Shown in pieces: positions 5,090 through 28,138 of a stretch of DNA of 30,255 nt (its first letter is position 1; each line of letters opens with the position of its first letter). Source of the stretch: Candidatus Curtissbacteria bacterium RIFCSPLOWO2_01_FULL_37_9 (GTDB lineage: Bacteria; Patescibacteriota; Microgenomatia; Curtissbacterales; GWA2-41-24); the NCBI GenBank assembly GCA_001776425.1, contig MFBN01000014.1, positions 11,596-41,850 on the forward strand, given 5' to 3'. The notes under the pieces were generated by a model that searched no databases, was not told the DNA's origin, and worked only from the letters and a program-made list of their open reading frames with translations. The position numbers were made by a program, and so were the translations under genes.

Positions 5090-5737
5090 GTGCCATCAAG
5101 GACTATTCCTTTCGTCAATAACCATTTTTACCATATCTTCAATAGAGGCGTGGCTCATATGCCAATATTCAACACCAAATGGGACCACAAAAGATTTACC
5201 AAAACATTTTTTTATTATCAAATTAAGGGACCCAAGCCAAAATTCTCAATTTTTAGCCCTGATAATAATAAGTTGGATACAAACAATAAAATTGTTGAAT
5301 TAATCTGCTACTGTCTAATGCCTAACCATTTCCATTTTTTGCTACAGCAAAAAGTTGACGGCGGAATCACGGAGTTTGTCAGCAAAATCAGCAACAGCTA
5401 CACCAAATACTTTAACACCAAAAATGAAAGGGCAGGACCCATACTGCAAGGGGAATTTAAATCGGTTCTCGTTGAAACTAATGAACAACTTGTTCACCTG
5501 TCAAGATACATTCATCTCAATCCGCTTGTCAGTTATTTAACAGATAATTTAGAATTATACCCACTTTCCTCTTATTTGGAGTACATTGGTATAAACAAAA
5601 CTTCAGTTTGCTCAAAAGACATAATCGTCAAACAATTTAAATCATCACAAGAGTATAAACAATTCGTCCTTGATCAAGAAAATTACGGAAAGGAACTCGA
5701 AAGAATCAAGCATCAAACACTTGATTTACCTAAATAA
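5090..5737 (+). mobile_element. REP-associated tyrosine transposase (RAYT/TnpA-REP, Y1 HUH family)
   Basis: GTG start; motifs YHIFNRG, CLMPNHFHFL (HUH), QGEFKS and YIHLNP (catalytic Tyr), typical of IS200-like/RAYT proteins; flanked by palindromic repeats. Confidence 0.85.
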
Positions 5738-10102: not shown

Positions 10103-10348
10103 ATGACAGATATTTTGGAAGAAATTAAACAAATTATCAGTACTCAGTTTGGTATCCCGGTAGAAAAAATACAGGAAGACTCGCTACTCGATGAGGATTT
10201 AAGCATTACTGATTTGGATCTTGAAGATTTCATGGGATTTGTTCAAAAGAAGTATGAAATTAATATTGACCAGGAACAATTTCCGTCATTTAAAAAAGTT
10301 TCCGATATAGTTTCCTATCTTTATGATAATCTCGAAATCTCAAACTGA
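10103..10348 (+). CDS. Acyl carrier protein-like protein with Asp at the phosphopantetheine attachment site
   Basis: Acidic 81-aa protein aligning without gaps to the ACP pattern (IKQIISTQFG...EDL..., VSDIVSYL), located next to rnc as acpP commonly is. The GADSLD motif reads SITDLD. Confidence 0.75.
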   Translation: MTDILEEIKQIISTQFGIPVEKIQEDSLLDEDLSITDLDLEDFMGFVQKKYEINIDQEQFPSFKKVSDIVSYLYDNLEISN

Positions 10349-12328: not shown

Positions 12329-13135
12329 TTAAAAGGGCGCAAACAAATCTGGTCTGCCAAGAGGTACTGATGGTGCAGGTGCCACCGGCGGCCCGGAAGG
12401 TATATTAGCTATTTCAGTTTTAATTTTCGCTAATAAATTTTTTTCCGATTCTGTTAATTCTGTTACCGGTGCTTCAATATTTGAAAGCTGAGTAATCATC
12501 GGTTTCCAATATGCCTCGATTTGTAAAGATACCCTGATTTGTGAGGAACCGGAAGTAGATAAGGAAGACCCTATACTTAGATCCTCAACAGCAACTATTC
12601 TGGGCATTGATCGCAATATTTTTAAAAACTGCATAAACGAATTATAATCACCGCTGATTGAAGCTTTTAGTTGAACCTTAGTATTAATTAAATCCGCACC
12701 TTTACTTTCAGGTGAAGAGGCTGTCGGAGCAGGTTGAGGTTTGTTTTCTACTGTACCGCTTAATGATCCCGGGGATACTTCCAGACGATTTAAAAGCACT
12801 CCGGAATTGGCTGCTGCCGATTCAATTTGCTCTATAAAAGTAAAAACTCCTTTATCGGATGGTAACATTTGTTCGCTGGATGCCAGTTGCTCCTCAAGCT
12901 CAATCTGGTCAAGATTTCGCAGTACATTTACTTTACTATCCATGGATTGAACACGGGTAGTCAATTCAGCAGTGGCGGTTTTTAATCTTAAAACTTCTGT
13001 AAATTTTGGCCAGACTATTAATAAAAGAATTAACATTGAAACAGCCAATGAACCCACAGGTACGGCTAAATTGGTAACTTTTTCAAAAATTAAACTGTTT
13101 TGAATTTTCAATACTGATAAGGCCGGTAATTGCAT
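12329..13135 (-). CDS. pilO: Type IV pilus alignment protein, PilO-like
   Basis: N-terminal TM helix, coiled coil, LP..K motif, ISGDYNSFMQFLKILRSMPRIVAVEDL; follows pilM and pilN. Confidence 0.7.
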   Translation of the reverse strand: MQLPALSVLKIQNSLIFEKVTNLAVPVGSLAVSMLILLLIVWPKFTEVLRLKTATAELTTRVQSMDSKVNVLRNLDQIELEEQLASSEQMLPSDKGVFTFIEQIESAAANSGVLLNRLEVSPGSLSGTVENKPQPAPTASSPESKGADLINTKVQLKASISGDYNSFMQFLKILRSMPRIVAVEDLSIGSSLSTSGSSQIRVSLQIEAYWKPMITQLSNIEAPVTELTESEKNLLAKIKTEIANIPSGPPVAPAPSVPLGRPDLFAPF

Positions 13136-13137
13136 AC

Positions 13138-13680
13138 TTATTTTTTATTAACTAACTGGGCCGTAATATTAAATGTAAACAGCCCCAGTTCATTAGAACT
13201 TAATGAATCAATAGAAACCTGGTTAAAATATTTAGCTCCTTCGGAGGATAATAGGGAAGATACAAGACCGGCTACATCTGCAGAGGACTGGGCTCTGGCG
13301 GATAATGAAACTTTACCTGATGTAAATTTAGCATCGGTAAAATAAACCCCCTGAGGTATTAACTTTGAAATATTTTCGAAAATATCAGCAAAATCTGTTC
13401 TTGAAGACACCAACTTTTCTGCTGAAGATGCTTTATCCTTAACAACAACAATTAATTCCTCCGTAGATTTTAAAGATTCAATCTGCCCTGAACTGGCTTC
13501 AACAGAAGCAACCAACTTAGACCTTTTTGAGGAAAATGAGCTAAATAAAACAAGAATTATAAAAGTAACAATACCTGTAATAACCAAGACAACTACCGAT
13601 ACAATCGAAATCCGCTTTACCAGAATTGAGAAATTCTCCTGATCTCTTGCCGCAACCGGTAATAAATTTATGTCCGCCAT
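13138..13680 (-). CDS. pilN: Type IV pilus alignment protein, PilN-like
   Basis: N-terminal INLLP (PilM-binding motif), TM helix, ISKLIPQGVYFT, SARAQSSADVA. Confidence 0.8.
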   Translation of the reverse strand: MADINLLPVAARDQENFSILVKRISIVSVVVLVITGIVTFIILVLFSSFSSKRSKLVASVEASSGQIESLKSTEELIVVVKDKASSAEKLVSSRTDFADIFENISKLIPQGVYFTDAKFTSGKVSLSARAQSSADVAGLVSSLLSSEGAKYFNQVSIDSLSSNELGLFTFNITAQLVNKK

Positions 13681-13706
13681 ATACTTTAATTTTAGCGTAG
13701 CAAATA

Positions 13707-14723
13707 TTAGCTGTTAAGAGCAAGACCGGTTGCCACGCTGAATATACCTCCCTTACCAACCATTTGTAAGATTACTCCTTCTTTAACAAAATCTGCCCAG
13801 GCATCACCAAGTGAAACTTCTAAATTGGTCCTTTGGGTTAAAAACTGGGATATTCCCGGCAAAAAAGCGCCACCACCACATATAACTAGTCTGGAGACAG
13901 GCAGATCTTTGGTATGCATATGAGAAAATTCAATTGCTTTTTGGATCTCTCCAATTAAAACATCCAATACCGGCTTTAGGACATCGGCTACTTTTCCGGA
14001 GAGTTTATCCTCTAAAATACCGTATGTTTGTTTATATTGTTCAGCCTGATTTTGGGGAAGATTAAATTCCGTCATAATTGCTTTTGTTAAATTCACTCCG
14101 CCTGTTGCTACCGATCTTGTAAACAATACATTTCCGTTATCAGCAATCACCAAATCCGTAGAAATTGCACCCATAGAAACTATTATTGTCGGTGGTTCAC
14201 CGACTTTAGTCAGGGCTCTGGCTAATGCCATTGATTCGGTTTCCATGGCAACTATCTTCAGTCCGGCATTTTTAACGATATTAATATATTTAGAAATCAT
14301 TCTTTTGGGGGCTGCTACCAAAAGAACGTCCATTTTTTCTGAAGTGGATTCAGGTCTTGAAATAATTTTATACTGCAAATTCACATCTTTTATAGGTAAT
14401 GGGATATATTGTTCAGCTTCCCAGCTGACAGCAGCAGACAATTCTTTATCTGTTAAATTGGGAAGCTGAATTAATCTTGTAACTACCTGCGATTCGATTA
14501 AAGATACAATGCAGTTTTGGAGGGTAATATTGGATTTGGCAACACAGGCCTTGACGCTTTCGGAAACTTTCATTAAATCAACCGGAGCCTCGCTCATAGG
14601 ACCGCCTAAAGGAGTTTGAAAGCTGGCAGCTGCTTCTAATATTTTTCTATTGCCACTTTTTTTAACTTTTACTGCTTTTATAAATGACCTTCCTATGTCA
14701 AGGCCGAAGAATTGGGCAGACAT
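13707..14723 (-). CDS. pilM: Type IV pilus assembly protein PilM (actin-like)
   Basis: FGLDIG...IKAV, WEAEQYIPLP, DVLLVAAPK, METESMALARA, VICGGGA, SVATGLAL. Confidence 0.92.
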   Translation of the reverse strand: MSAQFFGLDIGRSFIKAVKVKKSGNRKILEAAASFQTPLGGPMSEAPVDLMKVSESVKACVAKSNITLQNCIVSLIESQVVTRLIQLPNLTDKELSAAVSWEAEQYIPLPIKDVNLQYKIISRPESTSEKMDVLLVAAPKRMISKYINIVKNAGLKIVAMETESMALARALTKVGEPPTIIVSMGAISTDLVIADNGNVLFTRSVATGGVNLTKAIMTEFNLPQNQAEQYKQTYGILEDKLSGKVADVLKPVLDVLIGEIQKAIEFSHMHTKDLPVSRLVICGGGAFLPGISQFLTQRTNLEVSLGDAWADFVKEGVILQMVGKGGIFSVATGLALNS

Positions 14724-14728
14724 TAATA

Positions 14729-15022
14729 TTATTGGGAAGGAGAAATATCTTCTCCTGTGTTTTCCAAATTATCTGGTTCCGTAATTGGTTGAGCCGAGTC
14801 AGTAGCAGGAGAAGATATTGGTGTGGGTGTTGTAACAATAACCTGTTTTGGAACTCTGTTTCTAACCGTATTTTGGATAGCAGATTGATCAATCGTGCGC
14901 GAACCAGAATCAACTTGTGGATCTTCCTGCGTTTTAGAACCCAAAAAGATTAAAAGCAAAGCAGGAATAATTATTGCTGCTGCACCCACAAAAGTTAAAA
15001 TTAATTTAGTCTGTTTATTCAT
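14729..15022 (-). CDS. Small bitopic membrane protein with Pro/Thr/Ser-rich tail, function unknown
   Basis: N-terminal TM (LILTFVGAAAIIIPALLLIFLG), then low-complexity VTTPTPISSPATDSAQP. Its start overlaps the pilX-like stop by 1 nt (TAATG). Confidence 0.7.
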   Translation of the reverse strand: MNKQTKLILTFVGAAAIIIPALLLIFLGSKTQEDPQVDSGSRTIDQSAIQNTVRNRVPKQVIVTTPTPISSPATDSAQPITEPDNLENTGEDISPSQ

Positions 15023-15822
15023 TATTTAACAATATCTCCCTCTGAATACAAAACATAGTCAAATACAGCCGGTAGTTGAGGCAGGGCAGTTTTTCTAACT
15101 TGAACCCTTCTAGTAACCCCTATTTCGGAAGTTGCCTCGGAATTAATATCATAAGTTTGAACAGGCAATTCACAACCTGCACTAATACAAGAAACTTTTA
15201 CAGTTGCCTTATTCCATAACGGCTTGATTCTTAAAAGAACAGGATCAGGAGTAGTTATAATCCATTCTCCACATTTGTCAAAATTAGTACTAGGAGAACT
15301 ACAACTTGGAGTAGGGTTTCCAATTGGTACAAGTTCATCAGCCCTACCTAAAATACCTTGCCAGAATATTCTTGACTGTCCATAATTACCTCCACCAGAA
15401 TTATTTACAAGTGTCAGTTCGACAGACGCTATATTTGCTTTTTCTAGTGGATCACTGCTTTTCGACCAATCAATTTGTAAAGTAAAAGGACTAGTCATAT
15501 TCAAAAGATCAATTTGGCCGATTTCGCCGGGCTGAATCGTTGATTCATAAATCTGGCTTGATTTAACAGTAACATTTGCGGTAATGTCACCAACTGTAAC
15601 CGGAAATGTCTGACTGCCCGTTGCCGGAGCTACTGTAGTTAACCTTGACAATATATCCTCCACGCCGCCTTCAGCTGCTGTAAATGCCCTTTGGGATTGT
15701 TCTGTTTGAGTAGAAATACGTAAATTAGTGATATTTCGAGAAGCCACCGAAAGCCCGACAGCCAAAGCTACGACTACTATCAATAGAACGATAATTAAAA
15801 TCTGTCCTCGCCTTTTTTTCAT
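15022..15822 (-). CDS. Minor pilin, PilX-like
   Basis: Prepilin-like RRG|QILIIVLLIV lacking Glu5, plus QRAFTAAEGGVE typical of the PilX N-terminal domain. Confidence 0.75.
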   Translation of the reverse strand: MKKRRGQILIIVLLIVVVALAVGLSVASRNITNLRISTQTEQSQRAFTAAEGGVEDILSRLTTVAPATGSQTFPVTVGDITANVTVKSSQIYESTIQPGEIGQIDLLNMTSPFTLQIDWSKSSDPLEKANIASVELTLVNNSGGGNYGQSRIFWQGILGRADELVPIGNPTPSCSSPSTNFDKCGEWIITTPDPVLLRIKPLWNKATVKVSCISAGCELPVQTYDINSEATSEIGVTRRVQVRKTALPQLPAVFDYVLYSEGDIVK

Positions 15823-15833
15823 CCTTTAATTCC

Positions 15834-15863
15834 AGTTTAGGTATATTCGGATCCGGTTGTCAA
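15834..15863 (-). promoter_or_regulatory. Possible internal promoter upstream of the pilX-like gene
   Basis: Minus strand TTGACA (15863-15858), N18, TAAACT (15839-15834), in a 70-nt intergenic gap. Confidence 0.4.
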
Positions 15864-15892
15864 TTGCCTTAATTGATTTAAACCAAAAAAGT

Positions 15893-16468
15893 CTAGTATT
15901 GCCGCAAAGAAATAGTTGTATTAAATTTAACGTTTGCCAGAAAATCTTCTCTGGAAGGTGCGTCTTTACCCTGATTTAATATTAATTCGATATTAATAAA
16001 CGGGGGTGTTTCGGAACTGGATGGCTTAACCACATCAAGTTTTGAACAATCTACATCAACTCCGGTTATAGGATCCTGATTAGTTAAACTTGTATATTCC
16101 GGGGCTGAATCTGTTCTTATGGCTATATAGGCATTTAGTTCTGCAGAAGCACTAAAACAAGCAATATGCAAAGGTTCATTATCATACCGGTTTAGTACAA
16201 TATATTTTGCGTCATTTCCATCAGGTGAATCTGCATCCGTAGAATTTCTAATTTGCCGTTCCAAAGTATCAATTACCAATTGCCCGTTTTGCTTAACCTC
16301 ATTAGTAACGCTGGCTTTATTATTTCCCCTTAGAATAGATGTTAAAAAAAGCAGGGTAATACCAATTGTCAGGGATAAAAGCCCTAAAACTACCAGAAAT
16401 TCAACCAATGTAAAACCCTTCAAGTTCTTAGATTCAAATTCTGGGATTTGATTTTTAATAAAATGCAT
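15893..16468 (-). CDS. Minor pilin, PilW-like (prepilin N-methylation motif)
   Basis: KG|FTLVEFLVVLG class III signal peptide followed by an amphipathic helix. Confidence 0.8.
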   Translation of the reverse strand: MHFIKNQIPEFESKNLKGFTLVEFLVVLGLLSLTIGITLLFLTSILRGNNKASVTNEVKQNGQLVIDTLERQIRNSTDADSPDGNDAKYIVLNRYDNEPLHIACFSASAELNAYIAIRTDSAPEYTSLTNQDPITGVDVDCSKLDVVKPSSSETPPFINIELILNQGKDAPSREDFLANVKFNTTISLRQY

Positions 16469-16486
16469 TATTTTTTAAATATACTA

Positions 16487-16969
16487 TTAGATATAATCCC
16501 ACTTAGTCAAAATAGTCTGGTCTGTAACATTTTGCTTGCCTGCTGAATCTTCCCAAGTTATGGATACGGTTATTATTTTTTTATTTGCATTCGAGTTATC
16601 CGGTTCAATAATTAAATAGCGGTTGAAAAGCGTGCTATTTAAAGTAATCGCTTCTCCAACCGGGCATGGAGGTGCAACCGAATTTAAACTCCAATTCAGA
16701 GGATCCGCGTCAGTTGCATTTAATATGTAACAACTCCCCTCACTGAGCGCGTTAAAGCCTCTATGATCCCTATAAATTCTAATTTGTTCTAAAGTTTCCT
16801 GTGCAAGTTTAGTGGCTTGTGAATTGTTGCGGGCGCTTCTGGATGTTCTTTGAGTTATCAGGCTTGTCGTAACCAGAGAAATTGCCAAAAGTACCACAAC
16901 TCCCAGACCAATTACCACTTCGATCATTGACTGGCCGCGCAGTTTGTATTTAGTAATTTTAATCATCAT
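16487..16969 (-). CDS. Minor pilin, PilV-like
   Basis: RG|QSMIEVVIGLG with Glu5, QATKLAQETLEQIR, KKIITVSITW. Confidence 0.75.
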   Translation of the reverse strand: MMIKITKYKLRGQSMIEVVIGLGVVVLLAISLVTTSLITQRTSRSARNNSQATKLAQETLEQIRIYRDHRGFNALSEGSCYILNATDADPLNWSLNSVAPPCPVGEAITLNSTLFNRYLIIEPDNSNANKKIITVSITWEDSAGKQNVTDQTILTKWDYI

Positions 16970-16973
16970 TCAT

Positions 16974-17699
16974 TTATAATTTCTTTTCCGAAACTTCTCC
17001 TGTTGAAGACATGATCACTTGATACGTACTTCCGCCATGACTGCTAATTTCGATAATTAAAGCACCGGTATACCGTGGATCGATGATTAAACCACCATCA
17101 TCGAGAAAATTCGGAGGTATGGATTGTCCATCATGCAATGAAGGCACATTAGTTAATGGTCGAAATAAAATTGATGCAGAAGTTCCTAAACCTACGTTAA
17201 TACCGCTAATAATTATGCCTTTAGGTAAAGCTACAATTTTTTCGCCTATGATTATTTCAGTCCAAGGAGGTTGAGTAGCATCTATACAATCCCCGGCTAT
17301 AGTATAAGTATCACTGTCTTTTACAAAAGAAACATACCAACCGATTAAAGATGACGCTGATATAGATGTCTGACATTTACCGTCAATTTTGTCTCCGGAA
17401 AGGGCTCTATTTTGGGCAAGCCTGATTTCACTCGTTATAGTCTGGGCAGCGTTTTTAAGCCGCTGATTGCGCTCAAAACTGACATATGATGCGGTAATCA
17501 GGGAAGTAGTTAGGCCAAATATAGAAATAACAATTAAAAGCTCAATTAATGTGAAGCCTGGAAGACGAACATTAATAAGCTTTCTTCTTAGGGTGAATTC
17601 ACATTGACAAGTGACATGTAGCAAGTTACATTTGACAAATTCTTTTAATTTGTTGAATGTTAAATGTTTATAGCTAACAGTTCGCAAAACGCGGGGCAT
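16974..17699 (-). CDS. Minor pilin, FimT/GspH-like, with a long 48-aa leader
   Basis: PG|FTLIELLIVISIFG at residues 47-62; LKNAAQTITSEIRLAQNRAL helix. No closer in-frame ATG/GTG/TTG was found. Confidence 0.75.
   Translation of the reverse strand: MPRVLRTVSYKHLTFNKLKEFVKCNLLHVTCQCEFTLRRKLINVRLPGFTLIELLIVISIFGLTTSLITASYVSFERNQRLKNAAQTITSEIRLAQNRALSGDKIDGKCQTSISASSLIGWYVSFVKDSDTYTIAGDCIDATQPPWTEIIIGEKIVALPKGIIISGINVGLGTSASILFRPLTNVPSLHDGQSIPPNFLDDGGLIIDPRYTGALIIEISSHGGSTYQVIMSSTGEVSEKKL
17603..17685. repeat. Degenerate heptamer tandem repeats inside the prepilin leader
   Basis: ATTGACA AGTGACA TGTAGCA AGTTACA TTTGACA (17603-17637) and TGTTGAA TGTTAAA TGTTTAT AGCTAAC AGTTCGC (17651-17685). Confidence 0.65.
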
Positions 17700-17705
17700 T
17701 ACTTA

Positions 17706-18473
17706 TTAATATAACATTAAATACCAGTCCAAAATCGGCTTTGCCCAATAAAGACTGATTAAAAGCCCGCTTATTAAAAAAGGGGCAAAAGGAATTGTCT
17801 GACCGAATTTTTTATAGCCAAACAAAATAAGGACTAAAGAAACAAGAGCTCCGAGCAAAAAAGCCAAAAATAAAGACAATAAGGTTGCTTTAATACCTAA
17901 TACCATACCAATTAAAAAACCCAAAATAATATCGCCCTCACCCATTCCACGGCCGCGGGTTGCAACTACAATAATCAAAAAAAATAAAGCGGATAAAAAT
18001 GCGGCTGCTGTGTGTTGCGCAAATAAACTAGGGGAGAATGAAAAAAAATTATAAAACAAACTGATAAATGAGGCTATAAAGACAAATGTTGTAGGAATAA
18101 GCGAAAATTTAATATCAACTACTGCTACAACTATCACGACAGAAATCAAAAAAAGGTAATAAGCCAAAGTCGCCAAACTTAAATTATTTTCCGAAACCAG
18201 AATTAGAAAAGTTAGCAAAAATAAAATTGCGGTTACGGTTTCCACAAGAGGGTATTGCCATGATATTGGTTTTTTACAATAGCGGCATTTTGCTCCCAAC
18301 ACTGCGAAACTGACAATGGGTATCAAGTCGAAAGTTGAAAGAGTTGCCCGGCAGTGATCACAGTACGACCTGCCCAAAATTGACTCTCGCCTGGTTGTGC
18401 GGTCTATGACAACATTTAAAAAACTGCCCACCGCCGTTCCCAAAATAAATGACAACAATAGATAAAGAATCAC
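17706..18473 (-). CDS. pilD: Prepilin peptidase/N-methyltransferase (A24A)
   Basis: GSFLNVVIDR, RSYCDHC...CRYC zinc motifs, YPLVE, catalytic Asp in VDIK and GMGEGD, IPFAPFL. Confidence 0.95.
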   Translation of the reverse strand: MILYLLLSFILGTAVGSFLNVVIDRTTRRESILGRSYCDHCRATLSTFDLIPIVSFAVLGAKCRYCKKPISWQYPLVETVTAILFLLTFLILVSENNLSLATLAYYLFLISVVIVVAVVDIKFSLIPTTFVFIASFISLFYNFFSFSPSLFAQHTAAAFLSALFFLIIVVATRGRGMGEGDIILGFLIGMVLGIKATLLSLFLAFLLGALVSLVLILFGYKKFGQTIPFAPFLISGLLISLYWAKPILDWYLMLY

Positions 18474-18492: not shown

Positions 18493-18537
18493 CTAGTTAC
18501 TAGATGCTAGACCCTAAACCCTAGACCCTAATCCCTA
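18493..18537. repeat. Heptamer tandem repeats starting at the pilin stop codon
   Basis: Plus strand CTAGTTA CTAGATG CTAGACC CTAAACC CTAGACC CTAATCC CTA; on the coding strand TAG-NNNN units beginning with the pilin TAG. Confidence 0.75.
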
Positions 18538-19017
18538 TGGGGTACAACCGCCTTCGGTAATTTCTCCAACGCTTACACTTGCAGAACGCCAGCACCACAC
18601 CCAATCGCCAACTCCGGAAGTCGCATCTTCTAAAGCGGCATAAAGGGCAACCTCGGAATTGTTTCCTGTTGAGCTTATTAAATACTGATATTCGTTTCCT
18701 ACAGGATCAAAAGGAATAATTTTCAAATCGCCGGACGCTCTTAGGGAAGTCAATCCGCTGATAGAAGCGGGGCCGCTGGGGACAGGGAATAGACTATTTG
18801 CCGAAAAGTAGGAATTAAGAGCATTAGCAATTTGCCCTATATCGCTTTTTCTTGTAGCATCCCTTGCCTGTTTCTGACGCTTTGCCGGATTAATTGCCAT
18901 CATAATTACTACCGCCAAAATTGCCAAAATCCCCATCACGATCAGAAGTTCGATAAGAGTAAACCCCCTGAGGGTAATCTTTAATTTTAAATTTTTAATT
19001 TTCATTGAATTTGTCAA
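18535..19017 (-). CDS. Type IV pilin paralog (likely true start is ATG at 19005)
   Basis: RG|FTLIELLIVMGILAIL, ARDATRKSDIGQIA helix, C-terminal WCW...CTP Cys pair. Confidence 0.9.
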   Translation of the reverse strand: MTNSMKIKNLKLKITLRGFTLIELLIVMGILAILAVVIMMAINPAKRQKQARDATRKSDIGQIANALNSYFSANSLFPVPSGPASISGLTSLRASGDLKIIPFDPVGNEYQYLISSTGNNSEVALYAALEDATSGVGDWVWCWRSASVSVGEITEGGCTP

Positions 19018-19176: not shown

Positions 19177-21372
19177 ATGGTCAAAAAAATACTTACTTAT
19201 TATTGGCCGTTCCTTGTAATACTCATTGTAATCTTCGCCTTCTTCGCCAGACTTTTTATTCCTCCGTCAATATTTGTAACCCCAGATTTTGGCCGAAGCG
19301 ATGCTCTTCATTCAAATCTTACCGAAAAACTAATCCTGCAAAAGAGCCTTAAAAGCCTGAATGTTCCTCTCTGGGAAGATAGTATTGGTCAGGGTTATCC
19401 AATTTTTGCTGAGGGAATAATGGGTTTTTTTTACTTTCCTAATCTAATAATCTTTGGTCTATTACCATTTAATTTTGCCATACCTACAATGTATGCCTTT
19501 ACCTTTTTGACATCATCTTTTTCAATGTATTACCTCATAAAAAAACTAAAACTCGGCATTCTAGCTGCCACAATCTCCGGCATATCTTTTGCCTTCTCCG
19601 CCTCGATGATCCTTCACGTCCAACATTATAACTTCATCCAATCAGCATCACTTCTGCCACTTCTAATCTTATGGCTTTTAAATTTTCTTGAAAAGAAAAA
19701 CGCGACAAATGCCATAATTTGCTCGATTATCTTCTCTCAGGTAATTCTCGCAGGTTTTGTTCAGATCTTTGCATATATTACGATTATTTTTTTCGTCTTT
19801 ACAATCTTCTTAACATATCTAAGAGAAAAACAAAGTCTTCAAAAAGCCGTCACTTCATACATAGCTATAGTTTTGTTCTCCATAACACTTTCTGCAATCC
19901 AAATTCTTCCTTCATACGAACTCACCAGATTATCAACCAGAAACTCTGGCGTTGACACCAAAAGCCTACTTGAAGCTTTTCCGCTGTCTCCAAAAAACTA
20001 TTTCACTTTCTTAAATCCCTTTATCTTGGGCAAAACCTCAGATGGTTCCTATAACTCCACCCAATGGTCGAAGTACGGCGTTTATTGGGAAAACACAAGT
20101 TACATCGGTTTAATACCATTTGTCTTCTATTTTATCGGTCTATACTTTTTGTTTTTTAAACGTAAAAATCACATACTTTTGGCTGTTTTTGCAGCAACAA
20201 TAATCGCTATTTTGTTATCTCTTGGCAAATATTCACCCCTCCACATAGCCTATTCTTTCCCACCGTTAAATTACTTTAGAGTCCCTGCCAGATTTATTCT
20301 GCTTGTTCAGTTTTTAACACTAATAACAGCTGCCTATGGAATTAAATTCTTCGTGGATAAGATACCAAAACGAAAAACCCCAATCCTTAAAATCATACTT
20401 GTCCTATTCATGACAGTAAACCTTTACTTCTATTGGTGGAATTACAACCCAATAGGCAAAACTAAAAATTGGTTAATGCCTCCAGAGCTGGCAAACTCGA
20501 TAGAAAGAGGGGAAAACTGGCGTTTATTTTCTATTGACTCAAAACAATGGAATAGTGTATTTACAACCAAAGGCTGGCGAAATCAAGACGAAAACTATTA
20601 CTTCTTCAGAAATTCTCTTGATCAAAATTTGAATTTACTTTACGATATCAGCCAATTTTCTCACTTTGAAACCCTGCCAACAAGAAGATACGATCTACAA
20701 AACTTGATACTTAAAAATTCAATAACAATAAAAGACGAAAAAATAAATATAGCCCAAAAAGCCAAAAATATTCTAAAACAATCAAATGTCAGATATTTAA
20801 TTTCTCCTTACAAAATCGCATCAGAAGGATTCTCGCAAATCAAAAGTGTTAACAAAGACAACTTCATATTCTATTTATACGAACTAGAAAACCCCAACAG
20901 TCGTGCTAGTCTGTATTACGATTACAAATCGGTAAGAACCACTGGTCAATATACAAGTCTACTCGGAGAAATTGACCCCGTCAAAACCGTTCTTATAGAG
21001 AAAGTAGAAAACCTCGAACTGGAAAATGGAATGGGCTTGATATCAACAATTAGAATAGAAAATGGTTATCAATCTTTTAAAATTACCACAGACAAGCCGG
21101 CTATATTCGTAGTTTCAAACTCACCATATCCAGGATGGGAAGCAATAATTGACAGCAAAAAAACCACTATTTATCCCGCAAACATTAATTCTCAAGCAAT
21201 AATCGTACCACAAGGAGAACACCGTGTAGCATTCGAATATAAACCGAAAAGCTTTATAATTGGCCTGATAACTAGCTCCGTGTCTTATATCTTTGCCCTC
21301 GTCTGGCTAGCAAGAAGAAAGTTAAAGTTCCTCAACAGGTTTATCAATACCTTTCTTCCGACTCATCTGTGA
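19177..21372 (+). CDS. YfhO-family multi-pass membrane protein (predicted GT-C glycosyltransferase)
   Basis: Many TM segments; PLWEDSIGQGYP, FRVPARF; C-terminal VSNSPYPGWEAIID...PANIN...IVPQGEHRVAFEYKP plus a final TM helix, typical of YfhO. Confidence 0.8.
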   Translation: MVKKILTYYWPFLVILIVIFAFFARLFIPPSIFVTPDFGRSDALHSNLTEKLILQKSLKSLNVPLWEDSIGQGYPIFAEGIMGFFYFPNLIIFGLLPFNFAIPTMYAFTFLTSSFSMYYLIKKLKLGILAATISGISFAFSASMILHVQHYNFIQSASLLPLLILWLLNFLEKKNATNAIICSIIFSQVILAGFVQIFAYITIIFFVFTIFLTYLREKQSLQKAVTSYIAIVLFSITLSAIQILPSYELTRLSTRNSGVDTKSLLEAFPLSPKNYFTFLNPFILGKTSDGSYNSTQWSKYGVYWENTSYIGLIPFVFYFIGLYFLFFKRKNHILLAVFAATIIAILLSLGKYSPLHIAYSFPPLNYFRVPARFILLVQFLTLITAAYGIKFFVDKIPKRKTPILKIILVLFMTVNLYFYWWNYNPIGKTKNWLMPPELANSIERGENWRLFSIDSKQWNSVFTTKGWRNQDENYYFFRNSLDQNLNLLYDISQFSHFETLPTRRYDLQNLILKNSITIKDEKINIAQKAKNILKQSNVRYLISPYKIASEGFSQIKSVNKDNFIFYLYELENPNSRASLYYDYKSVRTTGQYTSLLGEIDPVKTVLIEKVENLELENGMGLISTIRIENGYQSFKITTDKPAIFVVSNSPYPGWEAIIDSKKTTIYPANINSQAIIVPQGEHRVAFEYKPKSFIIGLITSSVSYIFALVWLARRKLKFLNRFINTFLPTHL

Positions 21373-23382
21373 TCTTTCAAAATATTCTTTTGCTTTATCG
21401 CTGTCGTCAAAACAAACGCTATAAACTTGACCCAAGCCTTCCCACGCCTGCCAATAAGATTCATCTGCCTTAACAATTGCTAAAAATAAATCCCTCGATT
21501 TCTCACAGTCTTTCTTCTCTAAGTAATAAATCGCCAGTCCAAACATAGAAACACGATTTTCGGGTAAAATCTCTAAACTATTTTCAAAATATTCCTTGGA
21601 TTTATCAACATTACCGTGCTTTAAAAGCGCAAAAGCGTTGTCGGCAAAAACACCAGAATAAGTCGCTTTAATGTCATCCTCGAAAAAATTAAGGTATCTG
21701 TTTTTGACAACATCAAGTCTAAAATTAAGCTTGTCCAAACTCTGCAAAACTCTCCTGGAGGTTTCAGAATCGCCTGGTAAATCATCACGCCTGTAAAGCC
21801 TTTTGAGCATTCCTTGCTGAATCCATACATAATCAGCAGGAACTGAAATTGCCGAATAAGAATATATTGGAAATCTGTCATAGTTTATATCGATTAATTT
21901 GAAAACCGTATCAACATATTCTGTCCTGCCTTTTGTTAAAAAGTTCTCTGGAAAAAAAATTTCGGAATAAAACCTCTCAAGTTGTTTTCTGTAACTTTCG
22001 TGCTTCAACCTTCCGGTCAAGATAATTGGGGATTTATTGTTTATCCCATCAATGTAATATACATATTGAGTGTTAAAAGTAATTGTATCTCCTTGTAAAA
22101 AAATTATTCCAGGGGGATCGGCAGCAGTAAGAATATCCTTACCTAAAATTCCACCAACCTTATAATCCGAAAGGTCTGTTTTTGGCCAGTTTGTAATGAA
22201 TAAAAAGAAAGGGAAAATCAAAAATACAGAGGAAAAAAGCAACTTCAAAAAACTTATATTACCAAGATGCAATTTTTTCATTAAATTAAAAATAAAGTCA
22301 CGGATTCCAGCCATGCCAAAAAAAACGAATATCGCGAGGAACAAGTAGTTTATTAGCAAAAATCTTTCAGAAATACCCAAAAGAAGTGAGGTCAAAGGAG
22401 GGAAAGACGCGTACGCCAAAAAAAACGGGCCGCTAAAAAAAGCGCTAAGTAAAAAAAACCAGAACCATTCTCTTTTTTTTAAAAAAAGCCAAAAAATTCC
22501 CAACATAATCAAAATAACCCCAAAAACAGTAAAGTCAAAAAGAACCACTTTAAAGTACCAAAGAACTTGAACTAGTCGGGCAGGAGCAGAAAAACCAACA
22601 AGATCAGAAGAAGCAGTAAAAACCCCATAATCAGCCCTTGTAATCAGCTGCCAAAATCCCGAAAAATTTGAAGGGTCATCCCAATTAATGGGAGTTTTGC
22701 GTGAAGCGGCTATAAAAACGTAAAGATAAGGAACTATACCCAAAAGAAATAATCCAAACAACTTCAACAAATTTTTTAATTTTTCAAGTCTAAAGATCTT
22801 CAACCGAATAAATGCATATAAATAAGCCGGTACCAAAAGTAGAGAAGTATGATGGTGAAAAACCGCAAGACCAAAGAAAAACACACACAAATATAAGCTC
22901 TTTTTCCTATAAAAACTTGTAGAAATCCAAAAATAGTCAAACAAAAAAAACAAGGAGATAAGAAGTAAAATTATCATAAGTTGAAAAACCTCGGCAACGT
23001 GAGCATAAAACCAATACAAAGGTACAAAAGCCAAAACCAAAGAACCGGCAACCGATAAGATGAAATTCTTCAAAAGTCTAAATAGAAAAAAGCCCAAAAG
23101 CCCAACGCCAAATGCCATATAAACAGCCGAAACTAAGTTTGCCTTAAATGCAAAAGGGCCGATTGGTATTAATCTTGTTAAGATTGCACCAAGAAGGGTA
23201 TTTAGAGGATAACCTGGCGGATGAGGAACACCTGCAAAAAAATAAGAGAGGATAATGTCGCCGGAATCTCCACCATAAACGTCACTTGCTACACCTCGAA
23301 AATAAAGGATAAAAACTATAAAAGAAATAAGAACAATAGCAAACAATCCGTACTTTTCAACTGAATAGACAGATTTCCTCAC
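21322..23382 (-). CDS. DUF2723/TMEM260-like GT-C membrane glycosyltransferase with C-terminal TPRs
   Basis: GGDSGD...GVPHPPGYPLNTLLG hallmark, HHTSLLL, INWDDP, about 11 hydrophobic segments, then a soluble domain and TPR-like helices (YFENSLEILPEN, AWEGLGQVY). Overlaps the YfhO-like gene tail-to-tail by 51 nt. Confidence 0.82.
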   Translation of the reverse strand: MRKSVYSVEKYGLFAIVLISFIVFILYFRGVASDVYGGDSGDIILSYFFAGVPHPPGYPLNTLLGAILTRLIPIGPFAFKANLVSAVYMAFGVGLLGFFLFRLLKNFILSVAGSLVLAFVPLYWFYAHVAEVFQLMIILLLISLFFLFDYFWISTSFYRKKSLYLCVFFFGLAVFHHHTSLLLVPAYLYAFIRLKIFRLEKLKNLLKLFGLFLLGIVPYLYVFIAASRKTPINWDDPSNFSGFWQLITRADYGVFTASSDLVGFSAPARLVQVLWYFKVVLFDFTVFGVILIMLGIFWLFLKKREWFWFFLLSAFFSGPFFLAYASFPPLTSLLLGISERFLLINYLFLAIFVFFGMAGIRDFIFNLMKKLHLGNISFLKLLFSSVFLIFPFFLFITNWPKTDLSDYKVGGILGKDILTAADPPGIIFLQGDTITFNTQYVYYIDGINNKSPIILTGRLKHESYRKQLERFYSEIFFPENFLTKGRTEYVDTVFKLIDINYDRFPIYSYSAISVPADYVWIQQGMLKRLYRRDDLPGDSETSRRVLQSLDKLNFRLDVVKNRYLNFFEDDIKATYSGVFADNAFALLKHGNVDKSKEYFENSLEILPENRVSMFGLAIYYLEKKDCEKSRDLFLAIVKADESYWQAWEGLGQVYSVCFDDSDKAKEYFERSQMSRKKGIDKPVEEL

Positions 23383-23498: not shown

Positions 23499-23960
23499 TT
23501 ACGGCGTGCAACTACCTGATGTAATTTCTTGGGCTTTTCCAATTGCTGATTGCCAACACCATAGATAAGTACCTGTACTATCCGTAGTAGGATCTTCTAA
23601 TACATCGTAGATTGAAGCCTCACTTGAATCACTCTCAACCGAATATGAATATTCGCCACCTGTCGGATCAGTTGGAATTTGCTTCAGATCTTGAGTTACT
23701 GTCAAAGCTGCCAAGCCTCCAGGCGTACCGCTAGTACCAAGATAATCACCTTGCCCTGGTGTTGTGTAATATGCCTGCAGAGCCGTTGCTATCTGTCCTA
23801 TATCACTCTTGCGGGCAGCATCTCGTGCCTGTCTTTGTCTTTTTGCTGGGTTTACGGCAATCAAAACTGCGGCTGCTAAAATTCCCAAAATTGCAATAAC
23901 GATTAAAAGCTCAATTAGAGTAAAACCTTTGAAAAATTTCTTTTGGGCAGAATTAATCAC
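23499..23960 (-). CDS. pilA: Type IV pilin, probable major pilin
   Basis: GTG start, KG|FTLIELLIVIAILGILAA, ARDAARKSDIGQIA, C-terminal WCW...CTP; directly after pilC; perfect Shine-Dalgarno. Confidence 0.9.
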   Translation of the reverse strand: MINSAQKKFFKGFTLIELLIVIAILGILAAAVLIAVNPAKRQRQARDAARKSDIGQIATALQAYYTTPGQGDYLGTSGTPGGLAALTVTQDLKQIPTDPTGGEYSYSVESDSSEASIYDVLEDPTTDSTGTYLWCWQSAIGKAQEITSGSCTP

Positions 23961-24060: not shown

Positions 24061-25272
24061 CTAAAATGACGATGTCAGATTGTAAATCGGCAAAATAATC
24101 GAAAGCACTAAAATTCCTACACCCAGCCCCAAAAATACCAGAATCAAGGGCTCAAGAGCGGTTGTCAGGTTACGAATCGCAGTTTCACTTTCACCTTCAA
24201 AATAAATCGAAAGCCGCTGCAGCACTTCATCCATTTTACCGGTTTCCTCACCAACCCTGATCATTTGGGCAACAATCGGCGGAAAATCAGGATTAGCTGC
24301 TAGAGGCTGATATAAAGGAGTACCTCTTTCAACCCGGCCGATTGCAAAAAGTATTCCTTCTCTATAAGTAGGCGTTGCCAAAAGATCGGCAACAACCTTC
24401 AGGGCGGAAATAATCGGAATTCCGGTTGCAATTAAAAGTCCTAAAGTTCTGGTAAACTGGGCCAAAATTAAGGTTTTCCTGATTTTCCCCCAAATCGGCA
24501 AAATTAAAACAAGCCTTGAGATAATTTCTGCTCCTTTCTCTGTTTTGGAAAATACCCGTAAGGCATAACTTGCACCAAACCCCAAAAGAATCAAAAGCCA
24601 CCAGAAATTACGCATAAAATTAGACAAAAATATTAAAATTTTAGTCGGTAAGGGCAAATTGGCTCCGATTTCCGTATAAAGACTGGTTAATTTCGGGATC
24701 ACAAATATCATCATTACCGTAATCACAATAATCATAACCACGACCACGATAATCGGGTAAATAAAAGCGCCTTTTGTTTTTGATTTAAATTCTTTTTCCT
24801 TTTCCAGAGTATCTGCCAGCTTTATTAACACTTTATCCAAAACTCCTCCGGTCTCTCCGGCTTCGATTAGTTTTATATAGATAATATCAAACGCTCGAGG
24901 ATGCTTATGAAGAGCCTGAGACAGGGCCATTCCACCTTCGACATCGGCAACAACCTCTGCTAAGATATTAGCAAATTTCTGGTTTTTGGCCTGTTTTTCC
25001 AAAATTACCAAGGCATCTGTTAAGGGAAGACCGGCAGAGATCATGGTGGAAAGTTCCCTTGTAAAGTTAACAATCTCATTAACGGTTACTCCACCAATCT
25101 TAGGCAGGGCATTGATTAGAGGCAAACCAATCTTTTCCCGCTTTTTGATTTCTATTGGGATTAAACCTTCTTTTCTTAAAGATTCAACCAAAGTCTTTTC
25201 ATCAAAAACTTCAACTTCTCCGCTGAATTTTCTGGCGTTTTGATCCTTGGCAGTAAAACGGTAAAGGGCCAT
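24061..25272 (-). CDS. pilC: Type IV pilus platform protein PilC (T2SS F family)
   Basis: FTRELSTMISAGLPL, AGETGGVLDKVL, YPIIV, MIRVGEETGKMDEVL, ALEP, ILPIY. Confidence 0.96.
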   Translation of the reverse strand: MALYRFTAKDQNARKFSGEVEVFDEKTLVESLRKEGLIPIEIKKREKIGLPLINALPKIGGVTVNEIVNFTRELSTMISAGLPLTDALVILEKQAKNQKFANILAEVVADVEGGMALSQALHKHPRAFDIIYIKLIEAGETGGVLDKVLIKLADTLEKEKEFKSKTKGAFIYPIIVVVVMIIVITVMMIFVIPKLTSLYTEIGANLPLPTKILIFLSNFMRNFWWLLILLGFGASYALRVFSKTEKGAEIISRLVLILPIWGKIRKTLILAQFTRTLGLLIATGIPIISALKVVADLLATPTYREGILFAIGRVERGTPLYQPLAANPDFPPIVAQMIRVGEETGKMDEVLQRLSIYFEGESETAIRNLTTALEPLILVFLGLGVGILVLSIILPIYNLTSSF

Positions 25273-25288
25273 TAATGTATGCTAAATA

Positions 25289-26359
25289 CTATTTTTCAAA
25301 ATCGCTTTGTCCGGCAACCAATCGGTCCAGTTCCTCCGGTCTTAGGCTATAACTGCGGGCAACATCCAAAGATATACTTCCGGATCTAACTAAAAAGGCT
25401 AAAGAGGCATCCATTAAAATCATGCCTGCAGAACCGGAAGTTTGAATAATATTGTCAATCATATGAGTTTTACCTTCACGAATCGCAGTCTGTACAGCAC
25501 CGCTTTGCAGTAATATCTCAACAGCAGGTACACGCCCTCCGCCAATCGCCGGAACAAGTCTTTGAGAAATTATGCCGGCAATACTGGATGCCAGCTGCAT
25601 TCTAACCTGAACCTGCTGATTTTCCGGAAAAACGTCTATAATCCGGTCAATTGACTGGGCCGCAGAATTGGTATGAAGGGTTGCAAAAACCAAGTGCCCT
25701 GTTTCGGCAATAGTAATAGCAGAAGCAATTGTTTCGTAATCACGCATTTCGCCAACCAAGACCACATCCGGATCCTCACGAAGCGCGGATCTTAACGCCA
25801 CTTCCCAAGAATGGGTATCAAGGTGCATTTCTCTTTGCGAAACCAGTCCTTTACCTTTGGGATAAACATATTCTATAGGATCTTCTATCGTTAAAATATG
25901 AACCGGCTTTGTTTGATTAATCTGATTAATTATTGAAGCAATTGTAGTTGATTTTCCGTGACCGGTTGGCCCGGTAACCAAGATAAAACCCTGGCGCATT
26001 TTAACAAAGTCATGGCAAATTCTGGGTAAGTTTAAATCTTCTATAGTTTTAATAAAAGCGGGAATCAGCCGCAAAGCCGCAGAAAGATAGCCTTTCTGAA
26101 AATAAGCATTAACCCTGAATCTGGCAACATCTCCCAAGGCAAAGGAAAAATCAATTTCCTTATTCACCATTAAAGTTTCTTTCTGTTCCGTAGATAAAAG
26201 TTCGAAAACCAAACTTTCGGCATCCTCCGGAGTTAAGGGTCCGGAAGAAATAGGCATTAATTGACCGTCTATTCTGATCACAGCCGGTGAACCAACAATT
26301 AAATGCAGATCCGATGCTTCTTTTTTAACAACTATTTCTAAAAAATCCTGTATAGACAT
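25289..26359 (-). CDS. pilT: Type IV pilus retraction ATPase PilT
   Basis: ASDLHL, RFRVNAY, Walker A GPTGHGKSTT, EDPIE, ALREDPDVVLVGEMRD, TGHLVFATLHT, AIREGK. Confidence 0.95.
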   Translation of the reverse strand: MSIQDFLEIVVKKEASDLHLIVGSPAVIRIDGQLMPISSGPLTPEDAESLVFELLSTEQKETLMVNKEIDFSFALGDVARFRVNAYFQKGYLSAALRLIPAFIKTIEDLNLPRICHDFVKMRQGFILVTGPTGHGKSTTIASIINQINQTKPVHILTIEDPIEYVYPKGKGLVSQREMHLDTHSWEVALRSALREDPDVVLVGEMRDYETIASAITIAETGHLVFATLHTNSAAQSIDRIIDVFPENQQVQVRMQLASSIAGIISQRLVPAIGGGRVPAVEILLQSGAVQTAIREGKTHMIDNIIQTSGSAGMILMDASLAFLVRSGSISLDVARSYSLRPEELDRLVAGQSDFEK

Positions 26360-26389: not shown

Positions 26390-28138
26390 CTAATCTTCAG
26401 CCACCCTCAAGACTTCCTCAATAGAGGAAATACCCTCAATTACTTTTAAAAAACCGTCCTGCTTCATGGTAATCATCCCTTCTTCTTTTGCTTGTTCCCC
26501 GATAGCCTGACTTGTTTCTCTGGCCAGTATCATTCTGGTTATTTTTTCCGAAACAACCAAAACTTCATAAATGCCGATCCTTCCCAAATAACCGGTATTA
26601 TTACATTCTTTACAACCTTTACCGCTATAAAGCTGCGGGGGTTTTTTGGGATCAAAACTGTATAATTTTCCAAGTGTTTCTTTTATCTGGTTTAAAACTA
26701 TCTCGGAAACCTCTTTGGGCACTTTGCAGGTATTGCATATTTTCCTGACGACTCTTTGGCCGACAATACAGGTAACAGTTGATGCAATTAGGTAAGGTTC
26801 GGCATGCATGTCCAACAGTCTTGGCAGGGCACCGGTAGCATTGTTGGTATGAATCGTAGAAAATACCAAATGCCCTGTTAAGGAAGCCTGAATTGCCAAA
26901 TCAGTTGTTTCGGTATCGCGGATTTCTCCTACCATTATAATATTAGGGTCTTGCCTTAAAAATGAACGCAATCCGGAGGCGAATGTTAAACCGGCCTGTG
27001 TATTAATTTGAACTTGATTAACACCGGGAACCTGATATTCCACAGGGTCTTCCAAAGTCATAATATTAACTTTAGTTGAATTTAATTTGGAAAGAATGGA
27101 ATAAAGCGAAGTTGTTTTTCCAGAGCCTGTCGGACCGCAAATTAAGATAATTCCATGCGGTCTGAGAATATTTTGTTCAAGATTATGAAGCGCATTGCCT
27201 CTTAAACCTAATTCAGGAAGCGTTGGCACTCCTCCTGTTTTTTTAAGAAGCCTCATAACAACTTTTTCCCCGTAAGCGGTAGGCATTGTCGAAAGTCTAA
27301 GATCTATTTCCTCCTGGCCGACTTTAAAGTTAAATCTGGCATCCTGGGGAAGACGCTTTTCGTCAATTTTCATATTTCCCAATATTTTAATTCGCGAAAC
27401 AATAGCATCATGAATTCTTCTGGGTAAAATCAGCTTTTCGTGCAAAATACCGTCGATTCTATAGCGAATTCTGGTTTCGTTTTCCAATGGTTCAATATGA
27501 ATATCCGAAGCGCGTACTTTAATACCATATTCAAGTAAAGTTGAAACTATTCTGGCAACCGGAGCTTCACCAATCACCCCACTAACACTGCTTTCGGGAA
27601 TAAAAGCGGATGCTATGGACGGTGCTGCTTCTTTTAAGGCTTCGCCAACCTCAAAAGAAAGACCGCGGGTATATTGTTCGGCAATTGCTCTGGTTATTGA
27701 ATCTGCGGTAGCAATATACGGTCTAACACTAAAACCGGATTTTTTCTCGATAAACTCAAGAACCTGTAAATCCAAAGGATCTACCATTGCAACAGATAAA
27801 GTTTCGCCTTCTTTGGCAATTGGAATTACAATAAACCTTTTAGCAACTTCTTCCGGTAGAAAAGCTAATACTTCCGGTGAAATCGGCTGCTGGTCCGGAG
27901 CAACGTAAGGTACGCCGATAATGTCCGCTTTAGCCTGGGCCAGCTGTTCGTTATTAACCCAGCTCATTTGGGATAAGATTTTCTCAGCACTTTCCTGCCT
28001 TCTTTTGGCTTCGTTTTTAATGAAATTAAGCTGCTGGGGAGTCAATACTCCGCGTGAGGCTAAAATATCCTCCAGAGAAGATGCCTTTTTGTCGCTGTCT
28101 TCTGCTTTTGACTTTATTATTTGGGCAGTTATAGTCAT
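26390..28138 (-). CDS. pilB: Type IV pilus extension ATPase PilB (GspE family)
   Basis: ASDIHIEP, RYRIDG, RLPQD, GPTGSGKTT, LEDPVE, LRQDPNIIMVGEIRD, CNTC...CKEC zinc site, GYLGRIGIYE. Confidence 0.95.
   Translation of the reverse strand: MTITAQIIKSKAEDSDKKASSLEDILASRGVLTPQQLNFIKNEAKRRQESAEKILSQMSWVNNEQLAQAKADIIGVPYVAPDQQPISPEVLAFLPEEVAKRFIVIPIAKEGETLSVAMVDPLDLQVLEFIEKKSGFSVRPYIATADSITRAIAEQYTRGLSFEVGEALKEAAPSIASAFIPESSVSGVIGEAPVARIVSTLLEYGIKVRASDIHIEPLENETRIRYRIDGILHEKLILPRRIHDAIVSRIKILGNMKIDEKRLPQDARFNFKVGQEEIDLRLSTMPTAYGEKVVMRLLKKTGGVPTLPELGLRGNALHNLEQNILRPHGIILICGPTGSGKTTSLYSILSKLNSTKVNIMTLEDPVEYQVPGVNQVQINTQAGLTFASGLRSFLRQDPNIIMVGEIRDTETTDLAIQASLTGHLVFSTIHTNNATGALPRLLDMHAEPYLIASTVTCIVGQRVVRKICNTCKVPKEVSEIVLNQIKETLGKLYSFDPKKPPQLYSGKGCKECNNTGYLGRIGIYEVLVVSEKITRMILARETSQAIGEQAKEEGMITMKQDGFLKVIEGISSIEEVLRVAED

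Follow-up and report, generated by a model that had tools for sequence, protein, structure and literature searches.

The window analysed here is a 30,255-nucleotide stretch of contig MFBN01000014.1 of Candidatus Curtissbacteria bacterium RIFCSPLOWO2_01_FULL_37_9. Within a complete type IV pilus cluster it carries, right behind a pilin gene, an open reading frame (ORF 21322-23382) that is a member of the TMEM260-like/DUF2723 family by its sequence, the residues it keeps and its predicted fold. In humans, TMEM260 is a protein O-mannosyltransferase of the endoplasmic reticulum for the IPT domains of plexins, cMET and RON. The bacterial protein is probably an active pilin O-glycosyltransferase that uses a lipid-linked monosaccharide and serves the type IV pilus system of Microgenomates as one of its dedicated components. 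Five observations carry this reading: the protein belongs to the family, its functional residues are intact, its predicted architecture is that of TMEM260, its gene keeps a conserved place within the pilus operon and genes of a donor pathway are encoded in the genome.

Family membership and functional residues

The Pfam family PF11028, 'TMEM260-like', matches residues 39-193 of the 686-residue protein with an E-value of 8e-19 and a score of 68.5 bits, against a cut-off of 24.2, and tetratricopeptide repeat (TPR) families match residues 583-641 at scores below the Pfam cut-offs. A profile of 29 homologues matches consensus TPR proteins and the TPRs of OGT at positions 566-660. The best match among the sequences of solved structures is human TMEM260 (9rql/9rqm/9rqn), residues 30-480 of the query aligning to 43-489 of chain 9rql_A with an E-value of 3e-37 for the single sequence and 7e-61 for the 29-sequence profile, at an identity of about 19%. 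Full-length homologues number in the hundreds in the protein collection; those that are named come from Candidatus Curtissbacteria and other Patescibacteria, are annotated merely as 'DUF2723 domain-containing protein' or as hypothetical, and no specific NCBIfam model for the protein was found. An earlier note on this DNA had read from the letters a pair of motifs near the N-terminus, a multi-pass membrane core and TPR-like repeats at the C-terminus, and had proposed the full TMEM260 architecture. Both motifs, GGDSGDII and GVPHPPGYPL, are present, the core and the repeats appear in the structural model described below, and the architecture as a whole is supported by the sequence, the conserved residues and the predicted fold.

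In the human enzyme, D52 and H67 of the sugar-recognition motif, R264 and Y267 of the donor-loading loop and R355 of transmembrane helix 10 bind dolichyl-phosphate mannose, and a cryo-EM preprint identifies D441, in the Rossmann-like domain, as the catalytic base; mutation of each of these six residues abolishes or strongly lowers activity (bioRxiv 10.64898/2026.03.17.711096). A HMMER alignment places them, in the same order, at D39, H54, R249, Y252, R340 and D432 of the Curtissbacteria protein. Of 36 pilus-linked homologues, 35-36 have each of the six residues, as do nearly all of the remaining DUF2723 proteins that were fetched. D39 and H54 are invariant in the homologue alignment and present in 35 of the 36, the remaining one having an alignment gap; R249, Y252 and R340 are found in all 36 and D432, within QGDT, in 36/36 and 29/29 sequences. 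The earlier note had singled out the Asp of the N-terminal motif for mutation; this residue, D39, is indeed conserved as the counterpart of human D52, but the catalytic base according to the 2026 preprint corresponds to D432 instead, which is likewise conserved.

One feature sets the pilus-linked proteins apart. The Cys pair C626/C657 (window 21412-21507), on adjacent TPR helices, is present in 35/36 pilus-linked homologues and in 0/29 other DUF2723 proteins; it is probably a clade-specific disulfide, and it suggests an extracytoplasmic, specialised acceptor-binding module.

It might be argued that the protein is a non-catalytic pilus-assembly or scaffold protein whose TPR domain binds pilins or machinery and whose GT-C core is a relic, given that the TPR proteins PilF and PilW act in pilus biogenesis and that the protein has a weak NCBIfam match to PilW (E 0.0013) and PilF among its profile matches in the PDB. 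However, this is extremely improbable for two reasons: first, invariance of six functional residues across 36 diverged homologues is what a working active site would show. Second, PilF and PilW serve outer-membrane secretins, and family scans of the cluster proteins turned up no secretin gene.

Predicted structure

AlphaFold2, given the 29-sequence alignment, returned a model with a predicted local distance difference test score (pLDDT) of 88.2 and a predicted template-modelling score (pTM) of 0.87. It comprises about 11 membrane helices (residues 2-402), a five-stranded alpha/beta domain (409-560) and six TPR-type helices (566-679). Its sole long low-confidence loop, residues 253-263, directly follows R249 and Y252; low confidence is expected there, as this is the position of the flexible donor-loading loop in the human enzyme.

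In a Foldseek search of AFDB/Swiss-Prot the three best matches are the TMEM260 proteins of Dictyostelium, human and mouse, with E-values of 1e-26 to 1e-28 and template-modelling (TM) scores of 0.78-0.80 by query over residues 2-685, and the next matches are far lower (TMTC with a TM score of 0.3, then ArnT). The earlier note had called for superposition on TMEM260, and with the AlphaFold model of Q9NX78 as the human partner, so that both structures are predicted, the GT-C core, the Rossmann-like domain and the TPR domain overlay end to end with TM scores of 0.80/0.78 over residues 2-677. Among solved structures the top membrane-protein matches are the GT-C enzymes ArnT, AftA, Pmt4, DPY19 and ALG9, with ArnT first; TMEM260 itself (9rql/9rqm/9rqn) is not among the Foldseek matches to solved structures.

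Position in the pilus cluster and its conservation

The cluster runs PilB-PilT-PilC-pilin 1-glycosyltransferase-(YfhO)-pilin 2-PilD-minor pilins-PilMNO, with every gene on the minus strand except the YfhO-like one (Table 1), in a window of about 37% G+C. Pilin 1 lies upstream of the glycosyltransferase (GT) gene on the same strand, 116 nucleotides separating its stop from the GT start; no convincing intrinsic terminator was found in this gap, and promoter-like matches there are not discriminating. That pilin 1 is the 'major' pilin of the earlier note is suggested solely by its position after pilC. At their 3' ends the GT gene and the YfhO-like gene, which encodes a second GT-C enzyme, overlap tail-to-tail by 51 nucleotides (window 21322-21372). 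In relatives (L005-L036) this convergent overlap ranges from 0 to about 128 nucleotides, with 68-128 nucleotides in loci of Woese-, Roizman- and Gottesmanbacteria type. A tail-to-tail overlap that is kept in an otherwise one-directional operon might bring about antisense or transcriptional interference.

The distribution of this arrangement was followed by scanning one genome per prokaryotic species, which gave 80 homologue loci with 10-kb flanks in which ORFs were called and searched with the pilus proteins of the window and a prepilin-motif pattern. The order PilB-PilT-PilC-pilin-GT is kept in about 30 of these loci, at GT identities down to 28%, in Curtiss-, Woese-, Roizman-, Levy-, Gottesmanbacteria and further Patescibacteria, usually with PilD, minor pilins and PilMNO 3' of the GT gene. 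In 25 of the 80 a pilin gene ends at most 300 nucleotides upstream of the GT on the same strand, and in a second arrangement (L014, L018, L027) the GT adjoins divergent pilins, PilC and PilB. Most lineages have the convergent YfhO-like gene next after the GT, and in Levybacteria-type loci its place is taken by a GT-C protein of 380-390 residues resembling PMT_2; a short PMT_2-like GT-C gene comes just after the GT at L023:11967-13142. Where the gap between pilin and GT is wide it is filled with sugar genes: a PMT_2 GT-C in L003 (4860-6368), a DegT sugar aminotransferase and a GT2 enzyme in L005 (3660-5563). The slot between pilin and GT, or just after the GT, behaves like a variable glycosylation island.

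In a quick maximum-likelihood tree (IQ-TREE) with SH-aLRT support, the pilus-linked GTs form one clade (SH-aLRT 99) of 34 linked rows together with L041, whose contig lacks upstream context. L036 is pilus-linked, yet its long branch is placed outside the clade. Also outside are L033, which is not pilus-linked, and a second TMEM260-like paralogue of the same genome, a protein of 687 residues with a TPR tail (C16:3839-5902, L093), whose neighbours are a Wzx-type flippase, a sulfatase-family protein and an IS200-like Y1 transposase and show no pilus link. No pilus genes were seen near the distant DUF2723 genes (L035 onwards: Rokubacteria, Chloroflexota, Verrucomicrobiota and most Myxococcota), with the exception of L050:4586-6959, in a metagenome-assembled genome (MAG) of Myxococcales (JAHFDZ010000001.1), where a Ser/Thr-rich PilA-type pilin gene is followed directly by a DUF2723 gene. 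This pairing looks independent, as it lies outside the Patescibacteria clade. When the phylum was sampled evenly, only 11 of 301 Patescibacteria genomes had a match, which makes the enzyme a lineage-specific addition to the pilus system.

Four side observations belong to these loci and this genome. In a Chitinispirillaceae locus (L057) a pilin gene lies about 2 kb downstream of the DUF2723 gene. Third-party-annotation MAG records titled 'uncultured Gammaproteobacteria bacterium' (L001, L007, L011, L012, L014 and others) carry Patescibacteria-type pilus operons, and the titles look mislabelled, since their GTs group with those of Curtiss-, Woese- and Levybacteria in the tree. Two IS200/Y1-transposase-like genes occur in the genome, one at window 5090-5737 (plus strand) and one at C16:1536-2180 beside the second paralogue. 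Between nusB and rnc, an 81-residue ORF (window 10103-10348, plus strand) has no Pfam match at E <= 0.001.

Candidate acceptors

The proposal of the earlier note that the adjacent pilin is a candidate substrate is not proven, but it is strongly backed by the pilin-GT adjacency in about 30 loci, by the clade that these enzymes form and by the Myxococcales pair. Mature pilin 1 has 141 residues. Ser/Thr make up 28% of its globular part, whereas the genome mean is 12% and the 95th percentile 17.6%. An alignment of 26 pilins at about 30% identity (24 GT-adjacent pilins from related loci, pilin 1 and pilin 2) leaves, beyond the N-terminal helix and Cys, a single place where hydroxyl residues are conserved with pilin 1 included: the two residues that follow a Tyr-Tyr/Phe pair. 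In pilin 1 this YY-x-x pair is T66-T67 of the prepilin (mature 54-55, nucleotides 23760-23765), and all 26 pilins have Ser or Thr at one or both positions. Helix alpha1 ends at residue 66 in the AlphaFold2 model of the pilin, a low-confidence model with a pLDDT of 58. T66-T67, at the end of helix alpha1, is put forward from the alignment as a plausible modification site, a lead and not a finding; Ser63 of Neisseria PilE and the sites of the Pa5196 pilin are in the corresponding region, the alpha-beta loop. That the pilus-linked clade as a whole consists of pilin-specific O-glycosyltransferases modifying the Ser/Thr pair at this helix end is a tentative proposal, to which we give somewhat less than even weight.

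No match to the IPT/TIG domain PF01833 was found in the ORFs of the genome, the 0.73-Mb assembly of which is 77% complete, nor any match, pilin included, to the human sequon P-x5-P-x3-G-P-x2-[GA]-G-G-x2-[ST]. The lack of an IPT acceptor would bear on the specificity of the animal enzyme and not on family membership. Two further candidates were set aside. The pilin stretch GTPGGLAALT, although similar to the human G-P-x-x-G-G-G-x-x-T, does not fit the sequon and is probably structural, since it is part of the conserved GL..L...G.LK..P element of GspG/PilA-type pilins. The alternative raised in the earlier note, the Big_7 Ig-like domain of a penicillin-binding protein (2247-4805), was dropped: the gene lies 17 kb away among housekeeping genes with no synteny to the GT, and neither an IPT/TIG domain nor the human sequon is found.

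Donor pathway and other glycosyltransferases

The genome encodes a GtrB/PgfS-like polyprenyl-phosphate glycosyltransferase, a fusion of GT2 and GtrA domains that resembles dolichyl-phosphate mannose synthase (DPMS), a free-standing GtrA (Table 1) and a ManC-like nucleotidyltransferase. With GT2, GtrA and ManC-like genes present, a lipid-linked monosaccharide donor is available, the sugar of which may be mannose, glucose or another. The GT2 and GtrA flippase parts of a three-component system are thus encoded, on other contigs and not clustered with the GT-C gene.

The assembly holds at least five GT-C proteins: two TMEM260-like, at least two YfhO-like and one PMT. The GtrB/PgfS-like gene belongs to a second glycosylation cluster (C50:8988-14923, L094), in which it is accompanied by a PMT-family protein O-mannosyltransferase (446 residues), a 402-residue ORF and a YfhO-like GT-C protein (785 residues).

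This inventory raises the possibility that the enzyme is a broader protein O-glycosyltransferase, acting on minor pilins, other pilus parts or many secreted and membrane proteins, with the adjacent pilin as one client or none. At least six pilin-like genes lie in the cluster, two GT-C genes stand between two paralogous pilins, the number of GT-C proteins in so small a genome suggests extensive surface glycosylation, and TPR domains can take varied extended peptides. This scenario is unlikely, given that the GT gene keeps its position right after the first pilin gene and not beside the minor pilins, that a non-pilus paralogue and a PMT enzyme are available for other clients, and that the Cys pair found only in the pilus-linked clade suggests a specialised acceptor-binding module.

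It is also conceivable that the acceptor is not a protein at all, but a cell-wall or lipoteichoic-acid-like polymer or a lipid, and that the pilus operon serves for co-expression only. Characterised YfhO proteins glycosylate teichoic acids, and a YfhO-like gene is the partner here; many GT-C enzymes, ArnT among them, the top PDB fold match, act on lipids or glycans, and the other TMEM260-like paralogue adjoins a polysaccharide flippase of the Wzx type. We nevertheless consider this very unlikely, as both the catalytic base and the peptide-binding TPR module of the protein-specific TMEM260 are kept and pilin genes accompany the enzyme in both operon arrangements and again in a Myxococcales genome.

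Table 1. Features of the TMEM260-like protein, of the pilus cluster around its gene and of the donor pathway. Positions are those of the window unless a contig (C) is given.
Feature	Position	Strand	Evidence or remark
TMEM260-like (DUF2723, PF11028) GT-C glycosyltransferase, 686 residues	21322..23382	-	ORF call, Pfam, alignment, AlphaFold2 model
First extracytoplasmic loop (sugar-recognition motif), residues 37-60	23203..23274	-	GGDSGDIILSYFFAGVPHPPGYPL; contains D39 and H54
Donor-loading loop, R249-A-D-Y252	22627..22638	-	Equivalent to human R264 and Y267
Extracytoplasmic Rossmann-like domain, residues 409-560	21703..22158	-	Contains D432 (22087-22089)
C-terminal TPR domain, residues 566-679	21346..21687	-	Contains C626/C657
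PilB	26390-28138	-	
PilT	25289-26359	-	
PilC	24061-25272	-	
Pilin 1, prepilin of 153 residues	23499..23960	-	Proposed acceptor; N_methyl E 2e-09, GFTLIE motif
YfhO-like second GT-C, convergent	19177..21372	+	
Pilin 2	18535..19017	-	Paralogue, 51% identical to pilin 1
Prepilin peptidase PilD	17706..18473	-	
Four minor pilins (GspH-, PilV-, PilX-like) with PilM, PilN, PilO	12329..17699	-	
PilM, PilN, PilO	12329-14723	-	
GtrB/PgfS-like polyprenyl-phosphate glycosyltransferase	C50:8988-9974		E 1e-94 to Synechocystis GtrB 5ekp
GT2-GtrA fusion, DPMS-like	C9:13905-15095		E 5e-25 to 5mlz, archaeal dolichyl-phosphate mannose synthase
Free-standing GtrA	C19		72 bits

Proposed mechanism and significance

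For the pilin O-glycosyltransferase favoured here, both the activity and its details (pilin as acceptor, sugar, site) are inferred, in the following form. A cytoplasmic GT2 enzyme, for which the GtrB/PgfS-like protein (C50) and the DPMS-like GT2-GtrA fusion (C9) are candidates, would load a hexose onto polyprenyl phosphate, and a GtrA-type protein would flip the lipid-linked sugar. The GT-C core would bind it on the outer face of the membrane via D39, H54, R249, Y252 and R340, while the TPR and Rossmann-like domains would clamp an extended stretch of the membrane-anchored pilin. D432 would then deprotonate a Ser/Thr hydroxyl, which would attack the anomeric carbon before the pilin is assembled into the fibre. 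The YfhO-like GT-C, or the PMT_2-like one in Levybacteria-type loci, may add a second sugar, lengthen the glycan or act at a different site or on a different pilin.

Several points weigh against this reading. The conserved gene order links the enzyme to the pilus system and not to a particular modified protein, and the donor-pathway genes lie elsewhere in the genome, outside the cluster. The pilin lacks the human sequon, so that acceptor recognition is not transferable from TMEM260; with a pLDDT of 58 for the pilin model, exposure of the proposed site is not established, and the conserved Thr-Thr could be purely structural. Presence in 11 of 301 genomes makes the enzyme dispensable for the pili of candidate phyla radiation (CPR) bacteria in general. 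The tree comes from a quick search with SH-aLRT support only, and chemical or genetic evidence is absent for every bacterial member of the family.

Bacterial DUF2723/TMEM260-like proteins are without an assigned substrate, and the locus offers a testable enzyme-substrate pair; if the clade-wide reading is true, the pilin would be the first acceptor known for a bacterial enzyme of the TMEM260 family. Type IV pili play a central role in the episymbiosis of cultivated Patescibacteria, and pilin glycans in Pseudomonas affect phage defence. The pili by which ultra-small CPR bacteria contact their hosts would then carry a lineage-specific sugar coat, and such a coat could shape host recognition and phage resistance. 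It would follow, too, that the peptide-clamping Rossmann/TPR module of the animal enzyme was already at work in bacterial surface-protein glycosylation, and, being compact and having every functional residue, such a bacterial homologue could be a tractable model of the human disease enzyme. A study of Saccharibacteria pili could merely predict pilin glycosylation, asked for its confirmation and named no enzyme (PMC11623550). The sole paper in the searchable literature that names DUF2723, the 2023 TMEM260 paper, mentions only 'distant homologs in bacteria', and no paper on the pairing of a pilin with a TMEM260-type enzyme was found in that literature, most subscription journals being outside the search.

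Comparison with known systems

The closest characterised relative is human TMEM260, with which the Curtissbacteria protein shares a homologous membrane core and start of the luminal domain, the three-part architecture and the six functional residues; the two should also have in common a lipid-phosphate-sugar donor and an extended-peptide acceptor. It differs in residing in a bacterial cytoplasmic membrane, in a carrier that would be polyprenyl and not dolichyl, in the type IV pilin proposed as its acceptor, in the clade-specific Cys pair of its TPR domain and in belonging to a genome without an IPT domain or the human sequon.

By gene position and role the nearest system is TfpW of Pseudomonas aeruginosa group IV strains, a GT-C enzyme encoded after pilA that adds D-arabinofuranose oligomers to pilin, uses a lipid-linked sugar from genes elsewhere and needs a GtrA-like component (bioRxiv 10.1101/2020.04.19.049825). 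Both proteins are multi-pass GT-C enzymes whose gene comes right behind that of a pilin, and in both, loop 1 and a large C-terminal domain are extracytoplasmic. Adjacency of the TfpW type is found here in the 116-nucleotide gap, in the 25 loci with a pilin within 300 nucleotides upstream and in the roughly 30 loci embedded in type IV pilus genes. By Pfam only, the two belong to different GT-C families, PF11028 and TPR families being the sole ones found here. Whereas TfpW builds arabinofuranose oligomers, monosaccharide transfer is the simpler expectation for the present enzyme, with the second GT-C possibly extending the glycan.

The three-component systems, in which a GT2 enzyme (GtrB, CsbB, PgfS) and GtrA work with a GT-C such as GtrC, YfhO, PgfM or ArnT, are alike in that all parts are encoded and the neighbouring gene is YfhO-like; here, however, the parts are scattered and the proposed acceptor is a pilin, and not O-antigen, teichoic acid or an adhesin. 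PilO/TfpO and PglL, of the Wzy_C family, likewise modify pilin Ser/Thr on the periplasmic face and are often encoded beside pilA, but they have an unrelated fold and transfer preassembled undecaprenyl-diphosphate oligosaccharides en bloc, and a Pfam scan found no Wzy_C match here. Pilin glycosylation by a GT-C enzyme is already known from TfpW, and what would be new by this comparison is dedicated pilin glycosylation by a GT-C enzyme of the TMEM260 type.

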